From Lingula anatina (Eukaryota; Animalia; Brachiopoda): 64,000 bases of DNA. A program made the position numbers and the translations under genes. The DNA lies in contig CM120640.1 of NCBI GenBank assembly GCA_051362555.1, forward strand, positions 12,090,001 to 12,154,000, given 5' to 3'. Each line of letters begins with the position of its first letter. Position 1 is the stretch's first letter. This document shows positions 6,825-64,000 of this stretch, piece by piece. The notes below the pieces were generated by a model. That model worked only from the letters and a program-made list of their open reading frames with translations. It made no database searches and was not told where the DNA came from.

Positions 6825-8922
6825 TCATGATGCTTCACTACTGCTTGAGTTAGCTCTACTACTATTGTCACCACTAATGCCTTGGTCAGTGGTGCTTGAG
6901 TCAACCACATTTGTCTTGTTTCTCCTTCTTCCAAATATGGATGGCATTGAGTACCAGCTTCTCAAAACTGTGGCTTTGGCAATATCATACACAGCTGAGA
7001 CAGAGTCAGGTGCTGGGCGCACATCCAAAGTGGTAAACTGATAAGTGACTGGATCTACTTCATGTCCTTCATCATAATAGTCTATGATGTACCTCACCTC
7101 CTTGCCACAGCGGTCTACAATCCAGTCATGGCGGTCAAAAGGAAGGTCATATCTGAAAACAACATATACAAATCTGTCACTGCAATAATTTGTAACTATA
7201 CTCAAAATTACTTTGGTCAAACTTTGGTCTCACGTTATCTTAATTATTGAAGGTGGTATTGTTCTTTGAGTAGCAGTTAGTGCACTGGATACTGAACACT
7301 TCTCGAAACATGAAGAAGTGAAATCATTTCTCTTACTGAACATCCAGTTCTTAGTTGTCTCCTTCCTGCTCTTTCCAAAAACCTACCAAACTTGTGCTGT
7401 CCACTGTCCAAATGATATAACTTTCCACATTTGCATCAATACCCAATTTTCAGGTGAAAAATCATTAATTTGGCTTCATATAAAAAGGAAGAGTAAACTC
7501 ATTAAAGAAATTTACTATATAGTTACCCTCTCCAATGCCTTATCTTTGCTCTCCAAGAAAAGTCCTTGGCTTTACCTCCAAAGCTTTTCAATTTTGGGTC
7601 ACAGCATTCCCTGAAAAGTTTCATTTACAATTTTTACTAAAATTTCAATCAATATGCAGCATTATGATCACTTCATCTCTTTCATAATATCAACATAAAA
7701 TAAACCCCATTCTGTTTTCATAATCCTTGATAGATCATTCCCAAAAATAATAGATCTAGTCTTTTCAGTCAACCTACTTTGCATGCCAGGCCTCCCATTT
7801 CAGGACCTCCAACCAGGCTTGCTCATTGTTGGCATTGTGAATTCTAATTATACCATTCATGTCTTCCTCACTGATATCATCTTTTTTCCATCTCCACCCT
7901 AAATATATCGGGAAATTGAACAGATTTATTTGCATTTATTTTGTTGAAGCTTCAGAGTGTTTACTTTATATCTATGAATAAAACCAATGGAATGCAATCA
8001 TGAAAACTTTACAAGCCACATTATCAGTAAAAGTGCAGTTGAAAGATCTACAAATCTCATATCTATTATACTCAAGACTATCCTCTATCAGTTGTGATAT
8101 TTTACTAGTTTTCATACATTTCCCTTTGTCTTTAACACTGCTTTTCTTACCTTTTCTTAGCATAGCATTCCAGAACATCTGAGGAGATGGATAAACCCAG
8201 TATTCATTTTCTGTTCCACCCTTTGGTATGGAAGACACTACTCTGTCAGTGCTTAGCGGAAAAGGTTGGTCTGGAGACGGCCTTTGGTTCGGAGGAGGCA
8301 TCTAGAAAGCATTATTTTTGTTTATTATACCAAACTGGAATAAAATCTGAGCAGTTATTATGCCACCTATTAATGTGGATTGAAAATTAAAACAATGTAT
8401 GACAGAACCGACATTCAAACATGCTTCAAATAGTGAATCCCTACAAGATTATCTTTTATTCAGTTGTACTTTTTTGCAAGTAACCATCCTGAAACTGGCA
8501 AGAGTATTCAAATCCATACATGATTTAGGAGACTACCATTATAATTACAATCTTTTGGCCTTTACTTAAGTTCAAAATCATCCAATACCTACCATGTTTG
8601 TGGGGTCAATATCACCCATGCCTGATGGCAATGGGCCTTCGTTTTCCCTGTTCATTGGGCACTCGCTGGGGTAATACACTGGCTCTGCACTTCTCTGTCC
8701 ATGCTGTACTGGACACTCACTGGAACTGGACATTGGTGGGTGACCAGGTGGTGGTAGCATGGCACTGTTGTTATTGTTATTTGTGTTGACTTTGTTATGC
8801 ATTGGGCATCCCTCTGGTGGTCTCTGGACAGAGGGCTGGCTAGCTGGCACAGCTGGAGACTTTTTGCCTGTTAACTGGTCAGTGACAGCAGAACTTGCTT
8901 CAGTTGATGTAGCTGCTCCCAT
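6825..8922 (-). CDS. HCCS: Holocytochrome c-type synthase (cytochrome c heme lyase), 5 coding exons, 337 aa
   Basis: Exons 8922-8593, 8301-8151, 7898-7778, 7610-7527, 7152-6825, all GT-AG and in phase. Motifs: N-terminal MGAATS, three CP motifs (CPMH, CPVQH, CPMN), [61 protein letters not shown] non-coding first exon probably ends at 10203 (minus-strand GTAAGT donor). Confidence 0.96.
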
Positions 8923-9739
8923 TTTTCTATGCAGTGGTGAACACTATAGAGGGCAATCTAAATTAGACAATATCAGTGTTAAAAGCTTACACAGGTATCA
9001 GTCTATTCTCAGTTTTGGAATACTATAAAATGTATCATTGTAGTATATCCAAAAAGAGGAATTATTATATAATAGTTAGGGTTCTCAATACCTCGTCCAG
9101 ATAAGTTCATAAAACAGTTTTAAATACATAAATAGCATATATAAATAACACCGTATCTCAGTTTGCTGTAAGCTTCTGATTTTAAATACAAAGCACATGC
9201 TAAGCATTTAAAGGATATAACCTGCATAAAAAGTTCAATATTGATGTGGGTATCTAAAACCAATTTTCCTCCATATGGCACATTTGTGTTCTACATTATT
9301 TCGTTTAATTTTTTTTTTCTCACAAATGGCACAAAATTATTTCAAGATTCAAGGCCATAGCAAGCCACTGAAGATGGCACATATTTGGAAAACAAGGAAA
9401 CAGGTTATGACTAGATAGGGCCAACGGTAAAAAAGTGAAAATAAATTCTCAAGTAATATAGCAATTCTCACCTCAAAAACAGTTTGTAATATGACTTGTC
9501 AAAATAAAGGGGAAGTAAATGTATTTCACTATTCACAATCTCTCCTTAGTTATCATCATTACACATCAACACACATTCCCGTGTTAACATACCTTCCATA
9601 TTTCAAAGTTATCATCTGAATAATAGAGTTCATATACTAGTATTAATATTATATAACACTGGCAATGTGCGTGAATCTAAAGTAAAATAAATATGGTTTG
9701 TTAAGGTGAACAACAGATGTGTCAGATGTCTAACAGAAA

Positions 9740-10393: not shown

Positions 10394-13300
10394 ATGAAGC
10401 AAAAGAACAAGAAGGAAAATACTTTTTCTGGAACTGATGAAAGCCATAACTCAAGAAATGCAACAAAGAGGTAGTATTTTATATACATAATATGAGCTAT
10501 TAATTTTAACAAATTGAAATGCCAAGGATCTATGCCTGGTAAAATTTGAGACCAATTTTTGAAAAGTCTTTCCCGGCAATTTTTATGTTCGTTGAAATTT
10601 AATGTGAATTATTATTATTTCATTTTATCTATTCAGGATATAATTAATAATTATGTGCCTTACATTTGCTTATTTTGTTATTTTCTTCATATTTTGTTTT
10701 ATCCCTAAGCGTGATTATTTAAAACAGAAACAAAAATTGGACCATATTTACATTTGTTGGTAAAATGTAGATTTGTTGTGTAGACTACACTAGCAGTTTT
10801 GAGTAGGTAAACGTAATTAATATTATGAAACGATCTTGATATGATCTTGAGAAGATTTCAAAGGTGCAGGCCTCCACCAAAGAAAGAAAGCGAAAAATTT
10901 ATTTTAGGGGGAAACATTACCCCTTTCATTGGCAGAGATAATTCTGAAAGCATATTTTTACTTAAAATTTATTAATAACTTTTAATGTATTTCATTTGCA
11001 GAAAAAGAAAATCATTAAGCGAACTGGACTCTAGCCTCCAGAATACAAAGCTAACATGGGACATGGATCCCAAGAGGAAGAGCCAAATCTATGAAGATTG
11101 TGGTATAAATGAGTTAGAGGAAGACAGCAGGGATGCCTTCCCAGAGCCCACTCCTAAGATTCTCATGGCAATATCTTCAAACCCACCTGGGGTAAGAATA
11201 CTTGGCTGTAATCCTATATTTATAAATATATATATTATGGCGCTTAACCTGGTATTGCCAGCCCATCAAAACAACCCAAAGGGTGATTGATCCGATTATC
11301 CAGTGCATGCAGAAACAACTTTTAACACCTCCATTGGCCATTATATAATAACCATCCCAGTTCTGTGATATCATTTGCCAATGAGTGTCAGAAGTAAGAT
11401 CTTCCTAGCAACTTGTTAACTGTCGATCTAAAGAAATATGGTCCTCTGGGCTAGTGAACCTGTTGACTATTGGTAAACATGCAGTTTTTCAGCAATGTTT
11501 TCTCAGCAAAATCAAGTGCTCAGTGGATCAAACCCTGTAAATAAGTGTCTTAATTTTCCATAGGCAAAAATATACTCATATGAGCTTTAATACGGAATAA
11601 ATATTAGACTTTAAACAATGAAATAAATAGCAAATCTTGTATCACTGTGCAAGTAAGGTAAATGCTGACATGGAACTGATGTTTGATTATGTAGGCTCCA
11701 AAGGCAACAGCCAGATACACAGAATCAGATGATAGTAATGAAGCCCCACATCTTCACCCTTGGATTAAGAACCCAACCCCACACAGGCCGCTAAATGAGG
11801 AGAATGAAAATCCTCTGAAGAAAAGAAGAAAGGTTTGCGAAGACAGAGGCAGAAATGGTAAGACATTTCTTAGCTGTGTCTGAATCTTAAAAAGTATCTG
11901 CACCATATTATAAAAAGAAATCTGAACAACTTTTGATTAAGATTATAAAAACTATTATTGATTTTCTTTTTGAATGTACTGAATGTAAAAGATACAAAAT
12001 GTCAGTTTTACCTACCTACTAAACATACTCCTTACATTCTCATACAACAGCTGTGAAGTGCACCCCCTTGGTGCAAGTATTCTGTTAAATTTTTATGGTA
12101 TTCTGTTTTATTCTAGAGATTAATGGTTTATATACTCTTTCAGAATTATTTGTCAAGCTCTCAGATGAAATCATACTAAACATCTTCACATGGCTGCCCA
12201 AGTGTATTCTGGTTAAGTGTGCCAGAGTTTGCAGAAGATGGAAAGGCTTGTGGTAAGAAGATAAACTGGATCTTGGATTTTTGGATCTAAGTTTTGCTTG
12301 ATTTTTTTTCTTTCCTTCTTTCAAAGTCATAGACTGATAGGAATAAACTTGCTGTTAAATGGTTCTGATATTTACATTTCAGTTTTGATGAGTCATTATG
12401 GAAAAGGCTGGATATGGCCAGTAAAGTTTTGAAACCTGGTGTGCTGGGCAGAATACTGAACAGAGGTGTGCGGGTGCTAAGGCTTGCAAAGGCAGAGGTA
12501 AGGAGTTTTGGGTTACTAAAACATTGTCACTATAATTCAGTGTGCCAATATGTGGTACTGTGAATAAAGTTAGCTTTTGATTGGGTTAAATAAATCGGGG
12601 ATATTATTACAGTCTTTGGTAGCCTAACACAATTGTGAACATTTTGATGGAAATTCATCCGTGTAGTCTTTTGATTATGTTATACGCATAAACTTCTTTT
12701 TCTTCACTTACTTGAGCTGTACCTAAACAAAGCTTAGTAGCATAGGAACACACTGAGGTAGTGATCGAAAGCTTTGTTTAAGAACAGCTCAAGTAAGTGT
12801 AGAAATTAAAAAGTTTAAGCATGTAGCATAATCTGTTAACAAACTTACATTCATAAGCCATAGTGACTCGACATTAAAAATATGATTCCAATCAGTTTCG
12901 TGTAATCCCATGTGCTGCAGAGCTCCTAACAGGTACTGTTTTGTTTTAGGTCAATTCACCACTGTTTATTAACAAGCCAGTTGATTTTCCTGATTTGGGG
13001 TAAATATTAAGGGATACTTATTTCGTGCACTTCTGTATAGAGGTGAAAACATCTGTTGTGTCATTAAAACATTCACTTTTGTGTTCAACCTATCACATGA
13101 TTTTCCATATTTCATTCTTTCAGATTGTAATTTATTACAAAATGATAAATGCTTTAAAAATGTTTTCACATTACACTTGTACTGATCTTACATACTTAAT
13201 ATCTTGGCATTTTATCTCCAGGCTAACAAAAGTGCAATATTTAGATCTGTCTATGACTGTAGTTAGTGAAGCAGGTCTGGAGGAACTGTTGGGAAGATGC

Positions 13301-14955
13301 AAGTCACTGCGAAAACTTAGTCTAGAACACTGTGCCTTGAATGACAAAATATGTGGGTAAGGAGTTAAATTAGCTCAACTTGGCCTTAATATTTAAAAGA
13401 TTATGCCATGAACATATGTCATGCTATTTCCCATTCAACTATTCTTACATATTCTTGTTATATTTTAACTCTACCTCAACATAAAGGACATTGAATGGAT
13501 TATAATTTTTGCACATTTTATAAGAATATAGAGCAAACTGATGACAATTTTTGATAAGCTGCATTCTAAAGCAGACAATAAAAAACTCATTTAATGTTTC
13601 TTCTTCACATTGCAGATACATCAGTGAAAACAAGTTGCTTGAAGTTCTTAACCTCAGTATGTGCCAAGGAATTACAAAGGATGGGTTAAAAGCAATAGGA
13701 AGACAATGTCAAAGGTAAGAAAATAAAATGTGTAGAACTCTTCTTTGTGGTGGTGCTAATCAATAATGAACAAAGCAATCCAATGCCAACATATTTGCTG
13801 TAGCACATTTTACGAGAACTTTTCAAAAAAAAAAAAAAACATTTTTAACTTAGAGTCAATATTAATTGTATTTTTACTCTCCACAGGTTGGAAGCATTAA
13901 ACATAGCCTGGATACAGCCTTCCAAGGAAGTAGTGGACACAGTGGTCACTTCACTGACCAGAGGTCTACTTAAGCTCAATTTCAGTGGATGCAGGGAGCT
14001 TTTATCAGATGAAAGTATGTTCCACTTTTGTTTTGCAGTAAAGGCACTGCGAAGCCAGTGCATCAGTTAGCAACAATCAGTTTTTAAAGAATATTCTTAA
14101 GTTTTGTACAAAACCAAGCCAGTGCATACTGTAAAGCAAGGGTGTTGTATATATATTATTTCGTTTTCAAGTATTATTCACAAGCAATTAATTCAGTATT
14201 TCTCCAATTCTGTTGCAGATGTTCTTCAGCTTGTGACAACCTGTCCACACTTGAGGGAGCTGGATCTCAGTGACAGCACCTTTCTGTCCCCAGCAGCAGT
14301 AGAGTGTGTGGCTGACAACCTGCGTGGCTTGGAATATGTGGCTTTCAGCCGCTGCTACCAGATACCACCCAACACATTTGTGTAAGTAGATTATGTAATA
14401 CTGACATTAATTTGAACTTTAACTATATGTGTTAATATCAACTGTAAGTTGCATGTTCACAACTTGAAGCTTATTTTATAAAATATCTTTAACCAGTGGT
14501 ATTGTGTATCAGTTGTATGAGCTTTTTTCTGTGTAATCATCTCTGAGATTTTTAATTTAATTCTGTTAAAACCTCTGGACCAGTCGGTTTATTGTTTTGC
14601 TCCCATGATAAATGCTTGGCGATTTTTTAAAAACCATGCTCATGTGTGAAATATGTTTGATTAAACAAATAATGTCATCTTCAGGTAAAATTTGCCTGAC
14701 ATTTAATACTAGGATTTCAAAAATTCATTTTTCACCTAATAATTAATACATTACAGTTGTTTAAACCACCTTGTGACCCTGCTGGCATTAGATGTATTTG
14801 GAATGATGAAAGAATCTTCTTTGGAAAATCTGAGAGAAAGTATGTCACAGATTGAAATCAACAAGTATCACTTTTCAAGCATAGCAAGACCTACCACAGG
14901 AATAAGGAGGACAAGTGTTTGGGGTCTCAGAGTTAGAGATCAGGTGGTGGCATGA
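10394..14955 (+). CDS. SKP2: S-phase kinase-associated protein 2 (F-box/LRR), 11 coding exons, ~484 aa
   Basis: Exons 10394-10470, 11002-11191, 11695-11857, 12117-12252, 12383-12497, 12950-12999, 13222-13356, 13616-13714, 13887-14014, 14219-14381, 14757-14955, all in phase. F-box LSDEIILNIFTWLPKCILVKCARVCRRWK-DESLW. LRRs (VQYLDLS, LRKLSLE, LKLNFSGC, LRELDLSDS). SKP2-type tail FSSIARPTTGIRRTSVWG. AATAAA at 15701. Confidence 0.93.
12673..12833. mobile_element. Short foldback/MITE-like palindrome in an SKP2 intron
   Basis: Imperfect ~60-bp inverted arms (cacttacttgagctgtacctaaacaaagctt / aagctttgtttaagaacagctcaagtaagtg) around a ~33-nt loop. Confidence 0.7.
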
Positions 14956-16051
14956 TCTATATTAAAATTCAAAGATTCTATAAATGTATATGCAAACATC
15001 TGTACATGTATACAACATAACTCATACAGCAACAAAGGTCTTGCTTAGTTTGTTGTTTATGAAATTGTGATCTGTAAGTGCTTTGCACTTTCTTAATATG
15101 TTACTGGATGTTATATAATTTTGTACATGATAATTTCTTTTAAGCATGTGAAATTTCTAGTATTCAGTTTTCATCAAAGCTATAAAATCTTTTTGTAATC
15201 TAATTTTTAAATTAATAGGTATTCCAAATGTTAATTTAATTTTAAAAGCTAAAGATTTATTATTTTATCACAACTGGTCTTTGCTTTATATATAACTTAA
15301 CTGCTTTGATTTTAAGTTTTCCGAAATGTGCACATTTTTGAGTTATTGTGTAATGCATATATTTTAAAGAAAAAACAAGCGAATTCACAGAACATTACAC
15401 CTGTTTACCATTGGATTGGCCTTTATCTGAAATAAGGGGGACAAAGCTGAGCCTCAAGGATAAGTCTTGCTGAACATGTCAGTTGCTTGCAGAGCCATGT
15501 CAAAAGTCGTGTTTATCTTAATAAGTTTATTTACATGAAATCTTAACATGAATTTTAAAATCATTGGATATATATATTTGAGGTTTTACTGCAACTCGTA
15601 AAGTGTTACTTTATGTTCTAATTTGAAGAAATGGTTATAGAAGTCATTTAGACGGGGAATAAGCTTTTACTAACTTGTGAAGGTTATCCTTGTCAGTGAC
15701 AATAAACTTTTCTTCTAATAACATTGTTCTTTTTACTCTTTGTTCAATCTTTCTTCAGAAAGTAAGGTTTCAGATCAAATATACATCTCTCTCTAATGAG
15801 AGCCTTAAGACAAGACAATATTTCATAATTTTATTTCTAATGTGTACAAACCACAATTGAAATAGTGAAATTAATTTACAATCAAGTTCTGGCATGGTCG
15901 TTAAGTAGTTACATCCAAGCAGGGCTGTAAGTCATGAAATTAAGGTATCCTGCATGTATTTAATACTGCCCCAGTCATTTTTATCCTGCAGAGTTCATCT
16001 TTCCTAATTCAGACTTAAACAATAAAATGCTCAAAAAGTTAATCTGAAGTA

Positions 16052-16601
16052 CGAGGGCGAGTCAATAAATAACCAGCCTAACCTATTTCGGGTTGAGATC
16101 TACTTCTTTTTCAATATGATTTCCCTCCAGGGCAATGCACTTGGACCAACAGGGTTCAAGTGCAATCAGCCCAGAAGTGAAGAAGTCGGGGTCCTTTCCA
16201 TTGAACCACTCCTCAACTGCGGCCACGACTTGGCTGACAAGACCTGGCTTCATCTTCTAAAGATGTTCTACCGCGTTTAAACTCCCCAACCCAGAATTTT
16301 ACTTGCGCATAAGATGGTGCAGAAGACCCATACACATCAACTAACTCGGCATGTATGTCCTTACCAGTTTTACCTTTTAAATGCAAGTACCGAATTCCAG
16401 CACGGTACTCCATTTTTGATGAAAAGCTTGCTTTTACATCACTAGCCATGTTTGACATTCAATATCTGACAAACAAATGACCATATTCATATGTAGTTTT
16501 GTACCCAGGTACAATACATGTATTGAAACAATGCGTGAAAATCGTGGATGTCTCGGTTGATTGGAGATGTGTTAGGCTGGTTATATATTGGCTCACCCTC
16601 T
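16052..16601 (-). mobile_element. Internally deleted mariner (Tc1/mariner) transposon, 550 bp
   Basis: ~31-bp TIRs (cgagggcgagtcaataaataaccagcctaac / gttaggctggttatatattggctcaccctct) flanked by TA at 16050 and 16602. Encodes the transposase N-terminal HTH (EYRAGIRYLHLKGK...VKFWVGEFKRGRTSLEDEARS) joined out of frame to the C-terminus (VVAAVEEWFNGKDPDFFTSGLIALEPCWSKCIALEGNHIEK). The catalytic DDD core is absent. Confidence 0.93.
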
Positions 16602-17072
16602 TATATTTTCCAAGTTTTAGTACCTTGCATGTACATAAGGCATCTCACAAACCAAGGTCAATGTCTATCACAGGTTCTATGAGGTATAGGTCTTTGGCAT
16701 GTCTAAACTAAGCCAAGTAAATCTTTCTACTCTGCTATATTTACTATTCGAATTATATTTTGCATAAAAAATACAATTAACGCTTCAATGTCCAAATCTG
16801 GTCAAGTTATCCCAATTCTGGGATTTAAATGTTTTCTCAATAATTAAATTTACCAGACAAAGTTAACTCAAAAAGACACTTGTGTATCTTTAATATAAGG
16901 CCAGCACCACCCAAGAGTATATTTTTGAATGCGACAAAATTTACTTTAAAATTCTCTATCCTTGTTTCTTGGAAAGGTAAATGAAGTCCTTATTTTCTCT
17001 TGTCATTTACTTATCCATCTTTCGTAAAGATGCTCATTTGGGCTCCATCACAGATCATGTTTTTCTGGCATA

Positions 17073-20000
17073 TTATTTCTCAAAGTAAGTCATAACTTGA
17101 GTATGCAGCCCAAACTGAAACAAAGACATCACAGGTAAGTAGATAGCATCTTTTGACACTTAAACTACAAGTACTTGTTTAGTACAAATTTCTACACATT
17201 TTCATAAAATTCCCAATTATGAACAGAGTATTTAAATCCGGTTACAAGGAATGTCATGTAACTGAATGGTAAGAGAAAATGCTTACTATTTTGTCATTAA
17301 ATTTAAAGAGAGATAAATACAACCTCGGTGTTTTATCTGGGGATGTGGTCACTTCAGACTTACAAATGTACCACAAACGGTGTGATATCAATACAGCTTT
17401 CATTCATTTCTTTTCCTCAATATATGAAAATGTACAGACCCAACACCATTAATGCAGTTTTACCTTCTAAAAGCCTAACCCCTTCTTCCAAGAATGCTTT
17501 TGGCTCATCCACATTAATTTTAGCACTTTATTCTAATGTAATCATACCTTGAATACCACTGCAAGTAACACTCCCAAAATAAGAAATGGAATGAAAGGAG
17601 GACCACTTGATTTCTTCCCTTTACCACCAATAACCCAATTGATAAAATTCTTTTTTCTCTCAGTGTAGGGAGGATATCGCAGCCTGTAAGCAAAGCATGT
17701 TATGTTAAATGTAAAGGGGGTAAGTTGTCAACATGTGTTCAGCAGCACACAAATGTTTGTTCCAAGTTCGATCTAACGTGTCATCCTATAGGTATTTCGG
17801 ATTATGAAATTCTTTGTACAAAGACAATTGTAAATGAAATTTCAAATTTCATGTACAACCCTGTGATAACTAGTACCTGAAGTGACCACCATGGGAAAGA
17901 GGAAATGGGCAAGTAAAAAACAATGAATTGGGAAAACTCATCATATTTAACCTGATGGCATGTGTTAGTATTACAGGATATTTTTGTATATACCTTCAAA
18001 ACAAGGAATATGCCCAACTTGGACCTCTGTTCACTGCCCACTGGGCATATTTTAAGTGTCCTTCACGGTATGGTGGATACCTCAGACTAGTATGAAGGGG
18101 AGAAAAGAGTTCGGTATTTCAAACTATTTCTAAAATAGTGACCCTTGAACATAACTGCTTTTAATATCAATTGATGGATATAAGAAGATATCAAACTTTA
18201 GTGTATCAAAGACAATTTTATTAGAGGAAATGTCTATGATAACATCTTAAAATCCACTGAACAAAATGACTATTCTATACATATATAATTCCTGTTCTAT
18301 TCAAAGATGACAAGTAAAATTCACATTCCTTAAATATTTTCCCATTGTTTAAGTATTATGAGCCATATAACCCTTACAAGGAACGCTTACCACTTATACA
18401 TTTCTTACTACTTACCCATTTACAGATTCCATATTCAGCGCCTTCATGAGGCATGAGCGTCTGTGAGAGAAGGTCTCAAATGAATGTTTTCCATGGTAAC
18501 CACCCATACCACTGTGACCAACACCACCAAATGGCAGAGTATTTAGTCCAAATTGAACCATGACATCATTGATACAGGCACTGCCACTGCTTGTGCAATC
18601 CAGGATTCGTTTGGCAAGTTTCTTATCATGAGAGAAGACATACAGCGCAAGGGGCTTTTCCCTGAAAGATAAGTAAAAAGTTGAAGATCATACAATAGTT
18701 AAATGTATTGTCGCAGTAAGAAAAAATATGGTCCAGTCATTTTTACAAAAATAATCTTGATTTCTGTCAAAAGCATTTGGGTCAAAACATAAAACAGTTA
18801 GGCAAATTTAGTATTCTAATTGCAAAAAAATCATAACTTTCTTTAGGAAACCTCTTTTACCTGAAACAGGTTACTATTTAAGGTGAAAATATTTGAAAAA
18901 ATATTCTTAATTATCCTTACCCCTCATTAATCATTTCCAAAGCCTCCTCAACACCATTAACTGTTATAATAGGTAGGATTGGACCAAATATCTAGAAAGT
19001 TTTAGTAAACTATTTACTTTCTACATCTTTATGTCAAGCAAAACTGAAACAGTGCTTGGAAATCAGAAGAGGAATCCCACATAAGCATTCCATTTAGCAA
19101 CCTCAACACTAAAAATACTTTTTCCTAGTTATATTCTTTGAGTATCACCACTGTCTGAGTGTAATACAGGATACTTCTAAAGCTTTATCTGTTATTCATC
19201 AAAATATTTCATCAAACATAATGATTATATCTTTAATAAAAAAATAGCCATCAAGGTCTTATTGAAGACCACTATATTTTAGACAACTATATTTTATGCT
19301 ACTATAGCTCACCTCCTCCTGCATGACAGCATCACCAGGTTTTACATCTACAAGTACCGTAGGTTCAATGAACAAATCCTGTTCATCAGTGGCTCCACCT
19401 AATGCAATTTGAGCCCCATTCAACATCTTCTTCAGGCGACTTTCAAAAGGGGGAAAAACAAAATTTTCAATTGAAATGCAGTTTCCTCTGGTCATCACCC
19501 ATTTTTCAAGAAGGCAAACATTCATTCATGCATTTGAGTTCTAATAAATGATATATGGTAGTTTATGGGCCAGTATTGCTCGTGCATTAAAAATTACTCA
19601 TTGATAAAGGTCTAAGACACAAATAGGCAAGCATCCCCTTCCCAGTTCATTTGTATACATACATTAGCTTCTATTATTATCTGAACCTAACCACTGTCAA
19701 AAATGTAACATTTCACAAATTTAAAGTATGAAAAAATTATCTTACTGAAAATGTCTGATATTCACAATCCTACAATAGTAGTCAGACTGCTTTGGGTTCT
19801 TTTCTTCAAAAAACTGCTGAATTGCTCTCTTCATGCTGTCAAGAAAGCGTGCCTAAAATATGATCATAAAAAAATCAATCAGAACATTTGCAGATCATGT
19901 TCTCATGATTTATGAAAAATGCACATCCAGTTCACACTGCGTAAAAAAGTTATTTCAAGAGAAATAGATGCACAGCTATCAATGAAATGATGCAAAACTA

Positions 20001-23000
20001 TTCCCAGTTGATAACACATTTTTAAGTACAGAATTCTAAAATGTGAAATACTTGCATACAGAATCACCCCATTTCATTCTCACAAAACAAAAGGGTACAA
20101 AGGTGCATCTTGAGTTAACACAGTGTAAAAATAATCATGTAAAATTTTAGCAAAAATTTGGATCATTACATTGTATGTAATTCAATTTCTTAGGTTTATT
20201 TTTAAATAGTCCAGTACGTATACTACAATCAATAAATCAAGACAAACCTGAACCTCCTCCGTACAAAGAATGTAGTCTGGGGCAATACATGATTGCCCTG
20301 CATTGACAAACTTCCCCCAGAGAATTCTCTTTGCTGCTACATCAAAATCACAGTTGCTGTCAATATACACAGGACTGAAAATTGAACAAAAGAAAAGTTG
20401 ACTGCACTATCAAATGTAGCACATGGATGGTATTACGTTTTCAAGAGTTCAACTACTAAATGACTGATCTCTATATTTATTTCTCAGGCGGAGAGACCTA
20501 GAGTTTCCTAAGACAGCATGGACAATCCACATATTGGTGCGACTGACCTAACTTTATCTGATGACAATACAAACTGTTCTCTATATAAAATATACATGAG
20601 ATTAAGTGCAATTTAAGAGTGATTCTTATAGAAAGAGATACTGAAGCCAATTTAACTCAATCTTAAAAGACAATTATTAGAAGCTTTGAACGCAATTAAA
20701 TTGAGACTGATTTTAACTTTAACTAGGGGATGAAGCCACAAATGAAATTACAACTGAAAACATCCTTTAAAACTTCATTACAGGTTTTTCTAATGAAAAA
20801 AATACATTAATTTACAGATTTAGGCAATATTGTTACAGCTGATTCATCTAACCAATATTTACCAAATGGTGACATAATATGATTTAAAATATAAAGTTTC
20901 TAAAATGTAATGTGGCCATGAAATAAACACTATGACATCACTCTGGTGTGGACACCCAATGCACGAGGAAAAACGGAAAAAAGGGCATATGGACCTGAAG
21001 TGCTTCCAAGACAATAAATTTCCCTTTCATAAATACTTTGACCAGAACCACAGGAAAAAAGAGGATCAGAGAGCCAGGGGCTGCCTCATTAGAGTACACC
21101 AGCTGAGAGCAGTTGATTAAAAGAGGGTGAATACTGCACCAAGGATTTTTAGCTGTAAAATTAGTTGTATTAAAAGAAAATGCCCAGAAAAATTAATATA
21201 TTTAAACATAAAGAATGAATAGCTGTCTTGCTTACATTTGTATGAAAATGCTCATACCAACCCTTAAAAGTAATGCAGTTCAGTAAGGTGCAGAAAAAAA
21301 TCATTTTGTCCTCATGAAGTTGGAGAAAGAACAGCATCCTTAATCAATGCCAAGAGAATAGTGTAGAGCAAAAACTATGAATAACTCTGAAACTGGAACT
21401 TACGTTAGCAACTGACCAACGTAGCAGTCTCAATCTGAAACCTTTCACTAGGTAATGGCATGGATGGACTAGTGAAAGGTCTTGTGCTGGATAACTGGAT
21501 GACTAAAAACATTCACTTGTTATAGTTTTGAATGTTTAAGACCTCTGCTGCAATGCGCTTGCACTGGCTAGGTTAGTACTTATTTCATCTTGATCAGGTG
21601 AACTCAAAATGAGACTGACCATAATAAATAATTACATGCAGCATTGGTAGTAAAAAGTAGTGGTTACTTCATAATTCCCAACTTGACCTTGAGATATATG
21701 ATATACCTTTTCCCTCCAAGTTCTAGTGTAACTGGTGTAAGGTTTTCTGCTGCAGCTTTCATCATGATCTTGCCAACCATTGTGTTCCCAGTGTAAAAGA
21801 TGTAGTCAAACCTCTCCTTCAAAAGTGAAGTTATCTCTGGTACTCCCCCTGTCACTACTTTTATGCAGTCCTGAACAAAGAAATAGATTTATAATATATA
21901 ATTGCCATTTCATGAAAAATAACAATATAAGTTAATTTTAAATAAATCTAAATATATTCTAAATTTTATGACATATAAACATAGAGATGAAAGTTTAGAA
22001 TATCAACACTCCTATACTCATATGTATTAGGGCTTTTGTATTTCAAAACTATGTGATGTAAGCTTGCCTAATTTAAGCAATATTATATAGCATTCAAATA
22101 CAGATAAGTACATCTTGAAAATGTTGCCACTGTTGTATATTTATTTTAAAAAACAATATCTGTATTCAAACATTGGAAAAACAAATGCAACTTTCTTCAA
22201 ATATATTAGTTGGACTACATACCGCCTACAACTTATTTTACTCAAGGTTTTTAATATTTTAAAATATTATTATTAGTTTGATTCATAATACATTTATGAT
22301 AAAACATAGGTTCTGAACTTTATTGTGCTATATCTAAGGCAACAGCAAAATAATCATATTTTATTGTTTTAATTTCTAAATCAAAATGGAATAATGTAGC
22401 TTACGAATCTCTGTCGCTGAAATTCTCATTTCGTGTATTTTTATGTTGTCATTCTAGCTATTATAACTGCAGGTACAAGCTCCTCATTTGCCCAATTATA
22501 CAATCCACGTATTGTTGGGAAGTGATCCAACAAGGCATTACTCAGGCGTAGTTAAGAAGGTCATGTTTTATCTTAGTGCAAAGGGCCTAAACAGAGAGAG
22601 TAAACCTGGCAAACAGGTGCCAGGCATTGCAGTTTAAAACAGTTGTAGCAGAACAAATTTAAGTCCTGTTGGTGCAACGGGGTGCTGGTGCCCACCACAC
22701 TTGCTTTGATCTTCATAAATGGCAACAGAAAATTAGCACATTACGTACCTGATCTAAATATTGTGGGATGGTTCTTTCTAGAAATTCTGCTGTGGCTTCA
22801 GTCATTTCAGAAGGCTTGATAATAACACAGTTACCTGAAAAGGAAAATGTCTAGGCAAAAGTCTGAGTAAAAAATGTGCTGCCGCCTTGGTGTTACCCCT
22901 AATGTGTGCTTGTATGTAATAATTATAAATAATTTATATCAAGCAAATACATAACTTGCTGCCATATCTTGTAGTACTTTTTCCTTAACACGAACTGCTT

Positions 23001-26793: not shown

Positions 26794-45900
<19,107 letters not shown>

Positions 45901-62500: not shown

Positions 62501-64000
62501 TCTATATAATTTTTTAAAAAAATTACTAGCGGTTGGATGCTATTAATTTCACTTATCTACCTGATAGGACGTGTGCTGAACACGATGTTAAGACCCCTAG
62601 AGGTAAACGCTAATCCTTATCTGTGGTAAAGTATGTTAACTTGATGTCCGTGGGTCACCTCTTGACATCGCTTGTCATCCTGATCACACTTAATCACTCC
62701 ACATAACCGAGATACCAGTCCTTATATCAAGTATGACACCTACTGATATATTTTGGTCAACAGAAGGCAGTTAGGCCCTTAACTGTCTTTATATTTCTTT
62801 CTTTTTTTTTTCAAAAAATAAGTTAAGAATACAGATAAAAAACTCCATTTATTCTTTTTAATCTAAAAAAAAACTGATGTCGATTTCTCTACTCACAAAT
62901 GGAATCATGTATTTAGACCTGCAAAGAATGCAATGCCGACATGAAATCCATAACAGATGAGACAAGCACTGGGCTAGAAAATTTCACACGCGCATATCAT
63001 TCTTACACTGCTGCCAAGATTCCATTCTCATTCTTACCAAACATTATATACATATATGTCGTTATACATCATATAGGCCTAAATCAACCCTTCATGAGAT
63101 ATATTTTACCCCAGGGATCAAGTCGTAAGTACTCTTTGAGTTCCAAGACAGGGACTCTTCTCCCAGAATTCCCGGACCCCAGTAACCTGGTTCTGCCAGA
63201 GGGCGCCAGTGAGGAGAAGGTCCACACCTTTGTCATGATGTACAGGACGCACTGTCAGCGGATACTGGACACTGTCATATCTGCTAATTTTGACGAGGTT
63301 AGCTTTTTGTTTTGTCATGGTGAATCAAAAAGACATTGATGTCAGTTTAAAGCTTTTGTGCTGGTACATCAGCAAAATTTGAGAGAATTGAAATGAATAA
63401 ATTAAAAACATATATAAAATAGTTTTTAAAGGAAAAGTGCTTACTTTAGAACATTTTACGCTTTTAAAAGACAATGCCTTCTTGATTTGTTTCTTTTTCC
63501 CGATATTTTAAATGGCAATGAAATTTTTGACGCCTTACGGTTATATAACTCACAATAGTCACATTATCGTAGGTGCAAAACTTCCTGCTCCACTTCTGGC
63601 AGGGAATGCCAGACCACCTGCTGGAGGTGCTGGAGCTGGACGTGATCACAGATCTTGCAGGACTCTCAGACTCTATTTTATACAAGGTAAGGATTACATA
63701 TCTCTACAGAGATCCCCTATAACTATCGTACGCTGTTTTATACTAGTCAAGTTTTTTCTGCACTTAAGTAGATATATATACCTTCTTAATTTTTTTATAA
63801 GCAAATTGTTACTGTCTACTGATTTTTTTATTTTATTTTATTTTTTTTTTATTTCTCATTTTACAATTCGTTTGAAATTAAACGTCCGCATTCAAAGTGT
63901 TTTCTTTTTTTATTGAATTTAATAAATATTTTTTCTCTAAAAGCCGATAACCTTATCACCTTTTTCCTTACGTATCTACAGGTGCTGACGGACGTACTTA
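50590..64000 (+). CDS. RFX6: RFX winged-helix transcription factor, RFX6-like (RFX4/6 clade); 3' incomplete
   Basis: Exons 50590-50830 (less certain), 58938-59088, 59554-59677, 60155-60216, 60845-60922, 62358-62385, 63115-63297, 63573-63686, 63982->end, in phase. DNA-binding domain [30 protein letters not shown]...[38 protein letters not shown]6-type linker [16 protein letters not shown]...[16 protein letters not shown]. Also [13 protein letters not shown] and DSILYKVLTDVL. Confidence 0.9.
53596..56931 (+). mobile_element. Decayed 3.3-kb DNA transposon in RFX intron 1 (perfect 25-bp TIR, TSD TGCA, transposase pseudogene)
   Basis: TGCA|cacccaaacccaatatagaggtgca ... tgcacctctatattgggtttgggtg|TGCA. 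Repeated 14-mer GGAACATACGTTAC. Frameshifted coding relics at ~54810-55200 and ~55520-55870, including FERDDYSR and TVKTLYEHL. Confidence 0.85.
57868..58120. repeat. Degenerate ~80-bp tandem repeat, about 3 copies
   Basis: Recurring gctaagRagatgc / gaatcagt.ttacatc / tttgct modules at ~57876, 57953, 58031, 58115. Confidence 0.45.
58663..58705. repeat. (TTTTA)n simple repeat
   Basis: Direct reading. Confidence 0.85.
59802..59850. repeat. (TAT)n simple repeat
   Basis: Direct reading. Confidence 0.85.

Follow-up and report, generated by a model that had tools for sequence, protein, structure and literature searches.

A candidate competing-structure splice switch at the duplicated alternative exons of a Lingula anatina ALDH3 gene

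The window analyzed here, a 64,000-nucleotide stretch of the Lingula anatina genome, carries an ALDH3 gene on its minus strand. The assignment to class 3 aldehyde dehydrogenases follows from an Aldedh domain (PF00171, E 5e-88) and from top matches annotated as ALDH3; the exon located upstream of the two alternative exons described below is a 100% match to Lingula anatina ALDH3. Single-residue differences from the RefSeq proteins, Y/C in the last exon (17073-17114) and T/S in exon e5 (21707-21870), indicate that the window represents another haplotype or assembly. Neighboring genes encode cytochrome c heme lyase (6825-8943, minus strand), a Ras GTPase (45290-45574, plus strand), and an RFX factor (62917-63339, plus strand); exons at 13004-14955 (plus strand) resemble those of what we take to be an SKP2-type F-box/LRR gene.

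All 11 internal exons tested are flanked by AG/GT. Two of them, A and B, are homologous tandem exons that both start in phase 2 and both begin with LRYPPY; the score of their nucleotide alignment was matched by 18 of 1000 shuffles, and they form the only duplicated pair among these 11 exons. The RefSeq isoforms X1 (501 aa) and X2 (472 aa) split after ...MESVNG, with the tail of X1 encoded by exon B plus the last exon and that of X2 by exon A, the stop codon of which ends 2 nt before the A donor. A transmembrane segment is predicted in B (maximum KD19 2.49) and none in A (maximum KD19 -0.18). The initial annotation had taken B to be the membrane-anchor exon, and the gene model of duplicated exons A and B, with the anchor in B, is confirmed by both the RefSeq isoforms and the RNA-seq joints. 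In human FALDH, a gatekeeper helix follows the LRYPP motif and is in turn followed by the membrane anchor (PMC4109017). By analogy, the choice between A and B would alter both localization and substrate access.

Table 1. Exons, introns and putative pairing elements of the Lingula ALDH3 gene (positions in the window)
Feature	Position	Strand	Description
Upstream shared exon U	18416..18661	-	EKPLALY...MESVN; ends in phase 2; U-A and U-B joints
Exon A	17994..18086	-	93 nt; LRYPPY...AYSLF-stop; RefSeq isoform X2; U-A joints
Exon B	17548..17683	-	136 nt; LRYPPY...VVFK; RefSeq isoform X1; U-B and B-L joints
Last exon L and 3' UTR	16552..17114	-	FGLHTQ...FEK, with the B-frame stop at 17073; one 3' end maps to about 16552
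A-B intron	17993-17684	-	310 nt
B-L intron	17547-17115	-	433 nt
Y1	18070..18091	-	Acceptor of exon A: the final 5 nt of the intron, AG included, and the first 17 nt of the exon; predicted to pair with X over 6+7+7 bp
X	17869..17892	-	Central element in the A-B intron; includes the 13-mer at 17889-17877; Y1 and Y2 are its alternative predicted partners
Y2	17343..17359	-	Downstream 13-mer (17357-17345) with G-U extension; 190 nt past the B donor
Inner X:Y2 extension	17369..17375	-	Predicted to pair with 17868-17862 over 7 bp (probability 0.84 when the fold is constrained to X:Y2)
Z1	17903..17916	-	14 nt able to pair with the U donor (18421-18408); a secondary candidate with less support

The 3' UTR ends in a mariner-type remnant at 16050-16603, which has 40-nt inverted ends and a Mos1 HTH domain. 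Nine molecules of RNA run X12 begin at 16552, placing the likely ALDH3 3' end inside this remnant. Loose read ends at 16571-16604 in run X18 indicate that the structure of the remnant differs in the divergent lineage to which that run belongs (see below), and three X18 reads jump 252 nt of the 3' UTR (16805-17058) with ends that are non-canonical on the strand of the gene.

Exon use was assessed in six RNA runs from three studies (X12, X13, X14, X15, X16, and X18), with about 6-25 in 100 of each run sampled and a listing threshold of 3 reads for splice joints. Both A and B are used, each spliced to the same upstream exon U. The U-B joint was seen in five of the six runs (10, 11, and 9 reads in X12, X15, and X18; 2, 10, and 0 in X13, X14, and X16). 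The U-A joint was seen in all three runs of the latter set (8, 2, and 4 reads in X13, X14, and X16) and is not among the joints listed for X12, X15, and X18, where the depth over A is 1-3. The resulting ratios of U-A to U-B reads, 8/2 in X13, 2/10 in X14, and 4/0 in X16, differ between samples, with the comparison of X13 and X14 yielding a Fisher P of 0.008 on reads and 0.13 on distinct starts; these are low counts, and the two mates of a pair are not independent observations.

Joints between B and L were present in all six runs. No A-B or U-L joint was listed in the six runs at the 3-read threshold, at low depth and with NMD active. Steric exclusion is an unlikely cause of such exclusivity, given the length of the A-B intron. 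The initial annotation had envisaged that the A donor is brought toward the final acceptor. Depth in the bin holding the A donor amounts to 3.13, 1.99, 1.99, 4.99, and 1.01 times its exonic part in five runs, and these near-whole-number values indicate that in five of the six runs the reads leave the genome at the A donor; the A-L joint itself is not listed in any of the six runs at the 3-read threshold. Two reads of run X14 continue from A into the A-B intron to about 17907, and exon A may thus be partly retained or terminal.

The starting point for the structural analysis was an exact 13-bp complementarity that brackets exon B, reported in the initial annotation as about 54% GC, extendable by two G-U pairs, and free of repeat context. 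We verified the complementarity: plus-strand positions 17345-17357, in the B-L intron, and 17877-17889, in the A-B intron, are exact reverse complements located 519 nt apart with 54% GC, and the helix grows to 15 pairs when G-U is allowed. When both introns were shuffled, the observed Watson-Crick stacking energy (-26.1) was reached in 0 of 300 cases, or in 1 of 300 with G-U pairs allowed, and the 13-bp length in 3 of 300. The 13-mer by itself is not rare in the window, which contains 12 perfect inverted repeats of at least 13 bp with a partner within 1 kb, two of them with a GC content of at least 50%. Within the window, the 13-mer is not repetitive; with up to 2 mismatches allowed, the window contains 4 matches versus 0.96 expected (4 were reached in 2 of 100 shuffles), two of which are the arms themselves and one of which lies inside an ORF at 13849-14070. 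An Rfam search of 16000-19000 returned two matches, both far below the gathering score, and thus no known RNA family. Longer perfect inverted repeats elsewhere in the window, at 41722-42151 (30+22 bp), 28526-28738 (26 bp), and 12705-12799 (16 bp), are likely small mobile elements.

A scan of 16500-20400 with X, the A-B intron element that contains the 13-mer, and its flanks identified two best partners of nearly the same predicted strength: Y2, the downstream arm (-27.6 kcal/mol), and Y1, at the acceptor of exon A (-27.3 kcal/mol). Since positions 17889-17877 are used in both predicted helices, Y1:X and X:Y2 are mutually exclusive; as placed by the predictions, Y1:X covers the AG of A, and X:Y2 encloses B. 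Y1 was first met by inspection and then retested under fixed rules, with X defined as the 13-mer plus 10 nt on each side. Under these rules, the A acceptor reached -27.3, compared with -9.0 to -15.0 for six other splice sites, and the Y1:X energy was reached by 1 of 3000 shuffles of the target and 0 of 3000 shuffles of X. When X was not chosen beforehand, the best partner of the A acceptor across the whole A-B intron was again X (2 of 400 shuffles). Among 3440 YAG-centered sites of the window, 7 form duplexes with X as strong as Y1:X, X itself and Y1 included, and the paralogous B acceptor reaches only -10.6.

The same two helices stand out when all 11 exons are compared. No exon has an acceptor-masking helix as strong as that of A (-30.5, the others ranging from -11.8 to -22.0), none has an exon-bracketing helix as strong as that of B (-26.1, the others from -11.9 to -18.6), and the best mask of A and the best bracket of B both use X. 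The original proposal that pairing loops out exon B as a splice switch thus gains from the rank of its bracket, whereas its form, a single helix with no competitor named, is replaced here by two predicted helices competing for one arm.

Other pairings were less compelling. The U donor can form a 14-bp helix with Z1 (-18.2 kcal/mol, 0 of 400 shuffles) that would mask this donor; in a comparison of 11 donors, however, the U donor is not the best, the exon e3 donor finding -19.6 in a wider search. A pairing of the U donor with 17142-17131 was dropped as a functional candidate, as it presumably reflects the usual complementarity between donor and branch point. Y1 and Y2 look alike by eye; the idea that Y2 is the relic of a third exon copy found no support, the alignment of exon A with the B-L intron being equalled or beaten in 819 of 1000 shuffles.

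Across all 18 unconstrained folds, X is held by one or the other of the two states at a combined probability of 0.99-1.0 (0.97 in one fold). Their ratio swings with the ends of the folded segment and with temperature, the share of X:Y2 ranging from 0.00 to 0.98; the two states are near-equal in predicted energy, and their ratio is not predictable from the folds. An apparent agreement between a predicted 90:10 ratio of states and the read ratios was discarded for this lack of robustness across folds. At 37 C, Y1:X makes up 0.72-0.99 of the ensemble in all six unconstrained folds, and X:Y2 is therefore likely the minority, A-promoting state. The 13-bp pairing of the initial annotation thus does appear on folding, as one of two states, and is dominated by Y1:X at 37 C. 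The A acceptor is unpaired with a probability of 0.01 in the Y1:X state and 0.73 in the X:Y2 state, and in transcripts ending before Y2, Y1:X is predicted at a probability near 1. The Y1-X domain (241 nt) has a z of -3.27 and the X-Y2 domain (566 nt) of only -1.58. Two further pairings are predicted in both states: a hairpin of 11+5 bp inside the coding sequence of exon A (18051-18007, minus strand), which would shorten the Y1:X loop, and a 9-bp pairing of the B acceptor tract with the donor of B itself (17699-17543, minus strand).

We propose that X is the common arm of a competing-structure splice switch, pairing with Y1 or with Y2 and so choosing A or B, and that this switch is probably functional; we put the probability of this model-based reading at roughly 60%. 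We infer a scheme that extends from the helices in vivo and their effect on splicing to the A-L joint, NMD, and the localization of the proteins. In state 1, the local Y1:X hairpin would form first during transcription and bury the AG and first codons of A, so that U would be spliced to B to give an anchored, FALDH-like enzyme. In state 2, X:Y2 would take X from Y1, freeing the A acceptor and placing B in the 519-nt loop; the path from the A donor to the L acceptor, otherwise 879 nt, would be reduced to about 334 nt and the helix, and the resulting U-A-L message would encode an enzyme with no anchor and another 'gatekeeper' segment. With so little predicted energy between the two states, the A/B ratio would be set by transcription speed or RNA-binding proteins. 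NMD would clear messages containing both exons, in which 138 nt separate the stop of A from the last junction, and would spare A-L messages, in which this distance is 2 nt. In a fuller version, to which we give slightly less than an even chance, the 24-nt X element would act as a two-state toggle of hybrid design that either clamps the acceptor and first codons of A or loops out B, perhaps with the neighboring Z1 also acting on the U donor, and would switch this one gene, sample by sample, between a membrane FALDH-like and a soluble ALDH3A1-like enzyme.

Comparison of orthologous introns, the evolutionary check suggested by the initial annotation, was possible with a second lineage. Two data sets under the same species label, contigs of X10 and reads of X18, are mostly less than 95% alike to the window and have differences in common, pointing to a divergent lineage. 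Across the 433-nt B-L intron, the X10 contig has 34 substitutions and 4 indels, none of them in Y2. The change nearest to Y2, at 17359, would, given an unaltered X at that point, convert a U-G pair into U-A, and the inner 7-bp extension of X:Y2 is untouched on the Y2 side. Every 61-nt window of this intron that carries no more than one change includes Y2. The P value for its conservation depends on the span considered, being 0.32 for the 13-mer, 0.02 for a centered window of 61 nt, 0.16 when the span is 81 nt, and 0.40 once scanning is taken into account. Among the differences listed, those nearest to X and Y1 fall just outside these elements, at 17892-17895 (where a run of G is longer by one) and at 18068, and no two-sided compensatory change was seen among the listed differences of this one divergent lineage. 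The comparison thus finds Y2 intact and no compensatory pair, and the conservation of Y2 is suggestive but weak.

A metagenome scan for an LRYPPY acceptor found five animal-like loci, all with an anchor-type exon only and none providing orthologous introns; two of the five include the upstream exon and lack an A-like exon in between, the other three contigs being too short to show this. Only anchor-type tails were found, among the entries seen, in Owenia, Liolophura, Gigantopelta, Aplysia, and Ptychodera. The scallops Mizuhopecten and Ylistrum each have one long and one short isoform that diverge, at the protein level, at the same junction as in Lingula. Over 22 residues, each scallop short tail agrees somewhat better with the long tail of the same species (9 and 6 matching residues) than with Lingula A (5 and 4), and the sequences thus lean weakly toward separate exon duplications in Lingula and scallops. 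With their matching pair of long and short isoforms, scallops may have evolved a switch of this kind independently. Further exons of the family also have the look of duplicates: in Owenia, the isoforms (P0019/P0122) differ in the segment with the catalytic cysteine, and two insect ALDH3 entries (P0002, P0108) contain an E(K/H/S)PL...IND segment twice. Judged from such sequences, ALDH3 genes may duplicate exons repeatedly. The isoform differences in Liolophura (P0044, P0123-P0125) and Ptychodera (P0104, P0127) lie only past the anchor exon and recall the FALDH tail variants.

Both helices might be chance pairings, with splice-site strength and proteins choosing the exon and NMD removing double-exon messages, so that exclusivity would be only apparent. 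The 12 inverted repeats of comparable length in the window and the loss of significance of Y2 conservation after scan correction are in line with such an origin, and with an A-B intron of 310 nt and an early stop in A+B messages, NMD would be enough in principle. We nevertheless consider it unlikely, since the two helices were tested separately, have an arm in common, each rank as the best of 11 exons, and both fall on the sole duplicated pair, whereas the paralogous B acceptor, at -10.6, has no corresponding pairing with X.

A narrower mechanism in which only the Y1:X hairpin works, silencing A, with the 13-bp pair incidental or minor, would account for the near-complete formation of this hairpin in transcripts cut before Y2 and its dominance in all six full folds at 37 C. 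A messages might then end in the A-B intron, or a protein might open the hairpin; the lack of a listed A-L joint, the two X14 reads that enter the A-B intron, and the existence of two RefSeq transcripts for the A protein agree with this. Reads nevertheless stop at the A donor in five of the six runs, none of the 11 exons has a better bracket than X:Y2, and Y2 lies in the least-changed part of its intron, making this mechanism quite unlikely in our view. X also ends a stretch with a branch-point-like sequence, a pyrimidine tract, and CAG, followed by GT (17877/17876), that resembles an unused acceptor. That X is a cryptic or recursive acceptor hidden by the helices is highly improbable: the pyrimidine content before the CAG (0.73) falls within the range of 12 real acceptors (0.42-0.77) and both helices cover its AG, but in the six RNA runs 17876 is not joined to any exon and 17716-17862 has zero depth, and such a role leaves unexplained why the partners of X are the A acceptor and a site beyond B.

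A switch in which X competes for Y1 and Y2, if true, would extend competing-structure splice control to a brachiopod; the known proven cases come from insects and mammals (examples in PMC10790352). It would do so with a compact, one-arm hybrid layout that occupies 1.4 kb in all, would link a clear protein outcome to RNA folding, and would let one gene fill roles that in vertebrates are split between ALDH3A1 and ALDH3A2. With the two scallop species, which have the same kind of isoform pair, one can ask whether such structures arise again and again when exons duplicate. A literature search that covered few subscription journals found no paper on the splicing or RNA structure of Lingula ALDH3; MXE catalogues or the MetazExp database might list the A/B event. 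The hybrid layout, in which one arm either masks an acceptor or loops out an exon, has no counterpart in the literature examined.

The closest parallel is human ATE1, where exons 7a and 7b are governed by an R1-R3-R4 module and their ratio follows the energy difference (PMC7797038). As in ATE1, the Lingula exons are duplicated, one element between them has two competing partners, predicted ones in Lingula, and the upstream partner lies on the 3' splice site of the first exon (PMC7797038). Both partners in ATE1 are look-alikes located just upstream of each exon and mask the 3' splice sites, whereas Lingula Y2 lies downstream of B and would loop it out (PMC7797038); moreover, Lingula X does not pair with the B acceptor, and Y1 is mostly coding sequence. 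The ATE1 mechanism was established by mutagenesis and vertebrate-wide conservation, whereas the Lingula switch is known from predicted pairing (PMC7797038).

In its second state, the Lingula element resembles Drosophila srp exon 4, with its Us-Dd stem, and 14-3-3zeta: there, as predicted for X:Y2, an element past the first alternative exon pairs with one past the last alternative exon and draws the first exon nearer to the downstream acceptor (PMC4691838). In srp, two separate intronic pairs act bidirectionally, whereas in Lingula a single arm would toggle between loop-out and acceptor masking (PMC4691838). The pairing of the U donor with Z1 could serve as an srp-like second, upstream pair, a role that is weakly supported. 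With respect to origin, a duplication model proposes that tandem exon duplication yields competing helices, as would be the case in Lingula (PMC6071210); that model copies one arm of an intronic stem, whereas a relic origin of Lingula Y2 finds no support in the alignment (PMC6071210). At the protein level, the B product would resemble vertebrate FALDH (ALDH3A2), in which a C-terminal gatekeeper helix and anchor make a membrane enzyme for long-chain aldehydes, and the FALDH tail is itself alternatively spliced (PMC4109017). In vertebrates, the soluble ALDH3A1 and the anchored ALDH3A2 are separate genes and FALDH splicing directs the enzyme to the ER or the peroxisome, whereas in Lingula one gene uses duplicated exons to swap the entire segment that follows LRYPP (PMC4109017).
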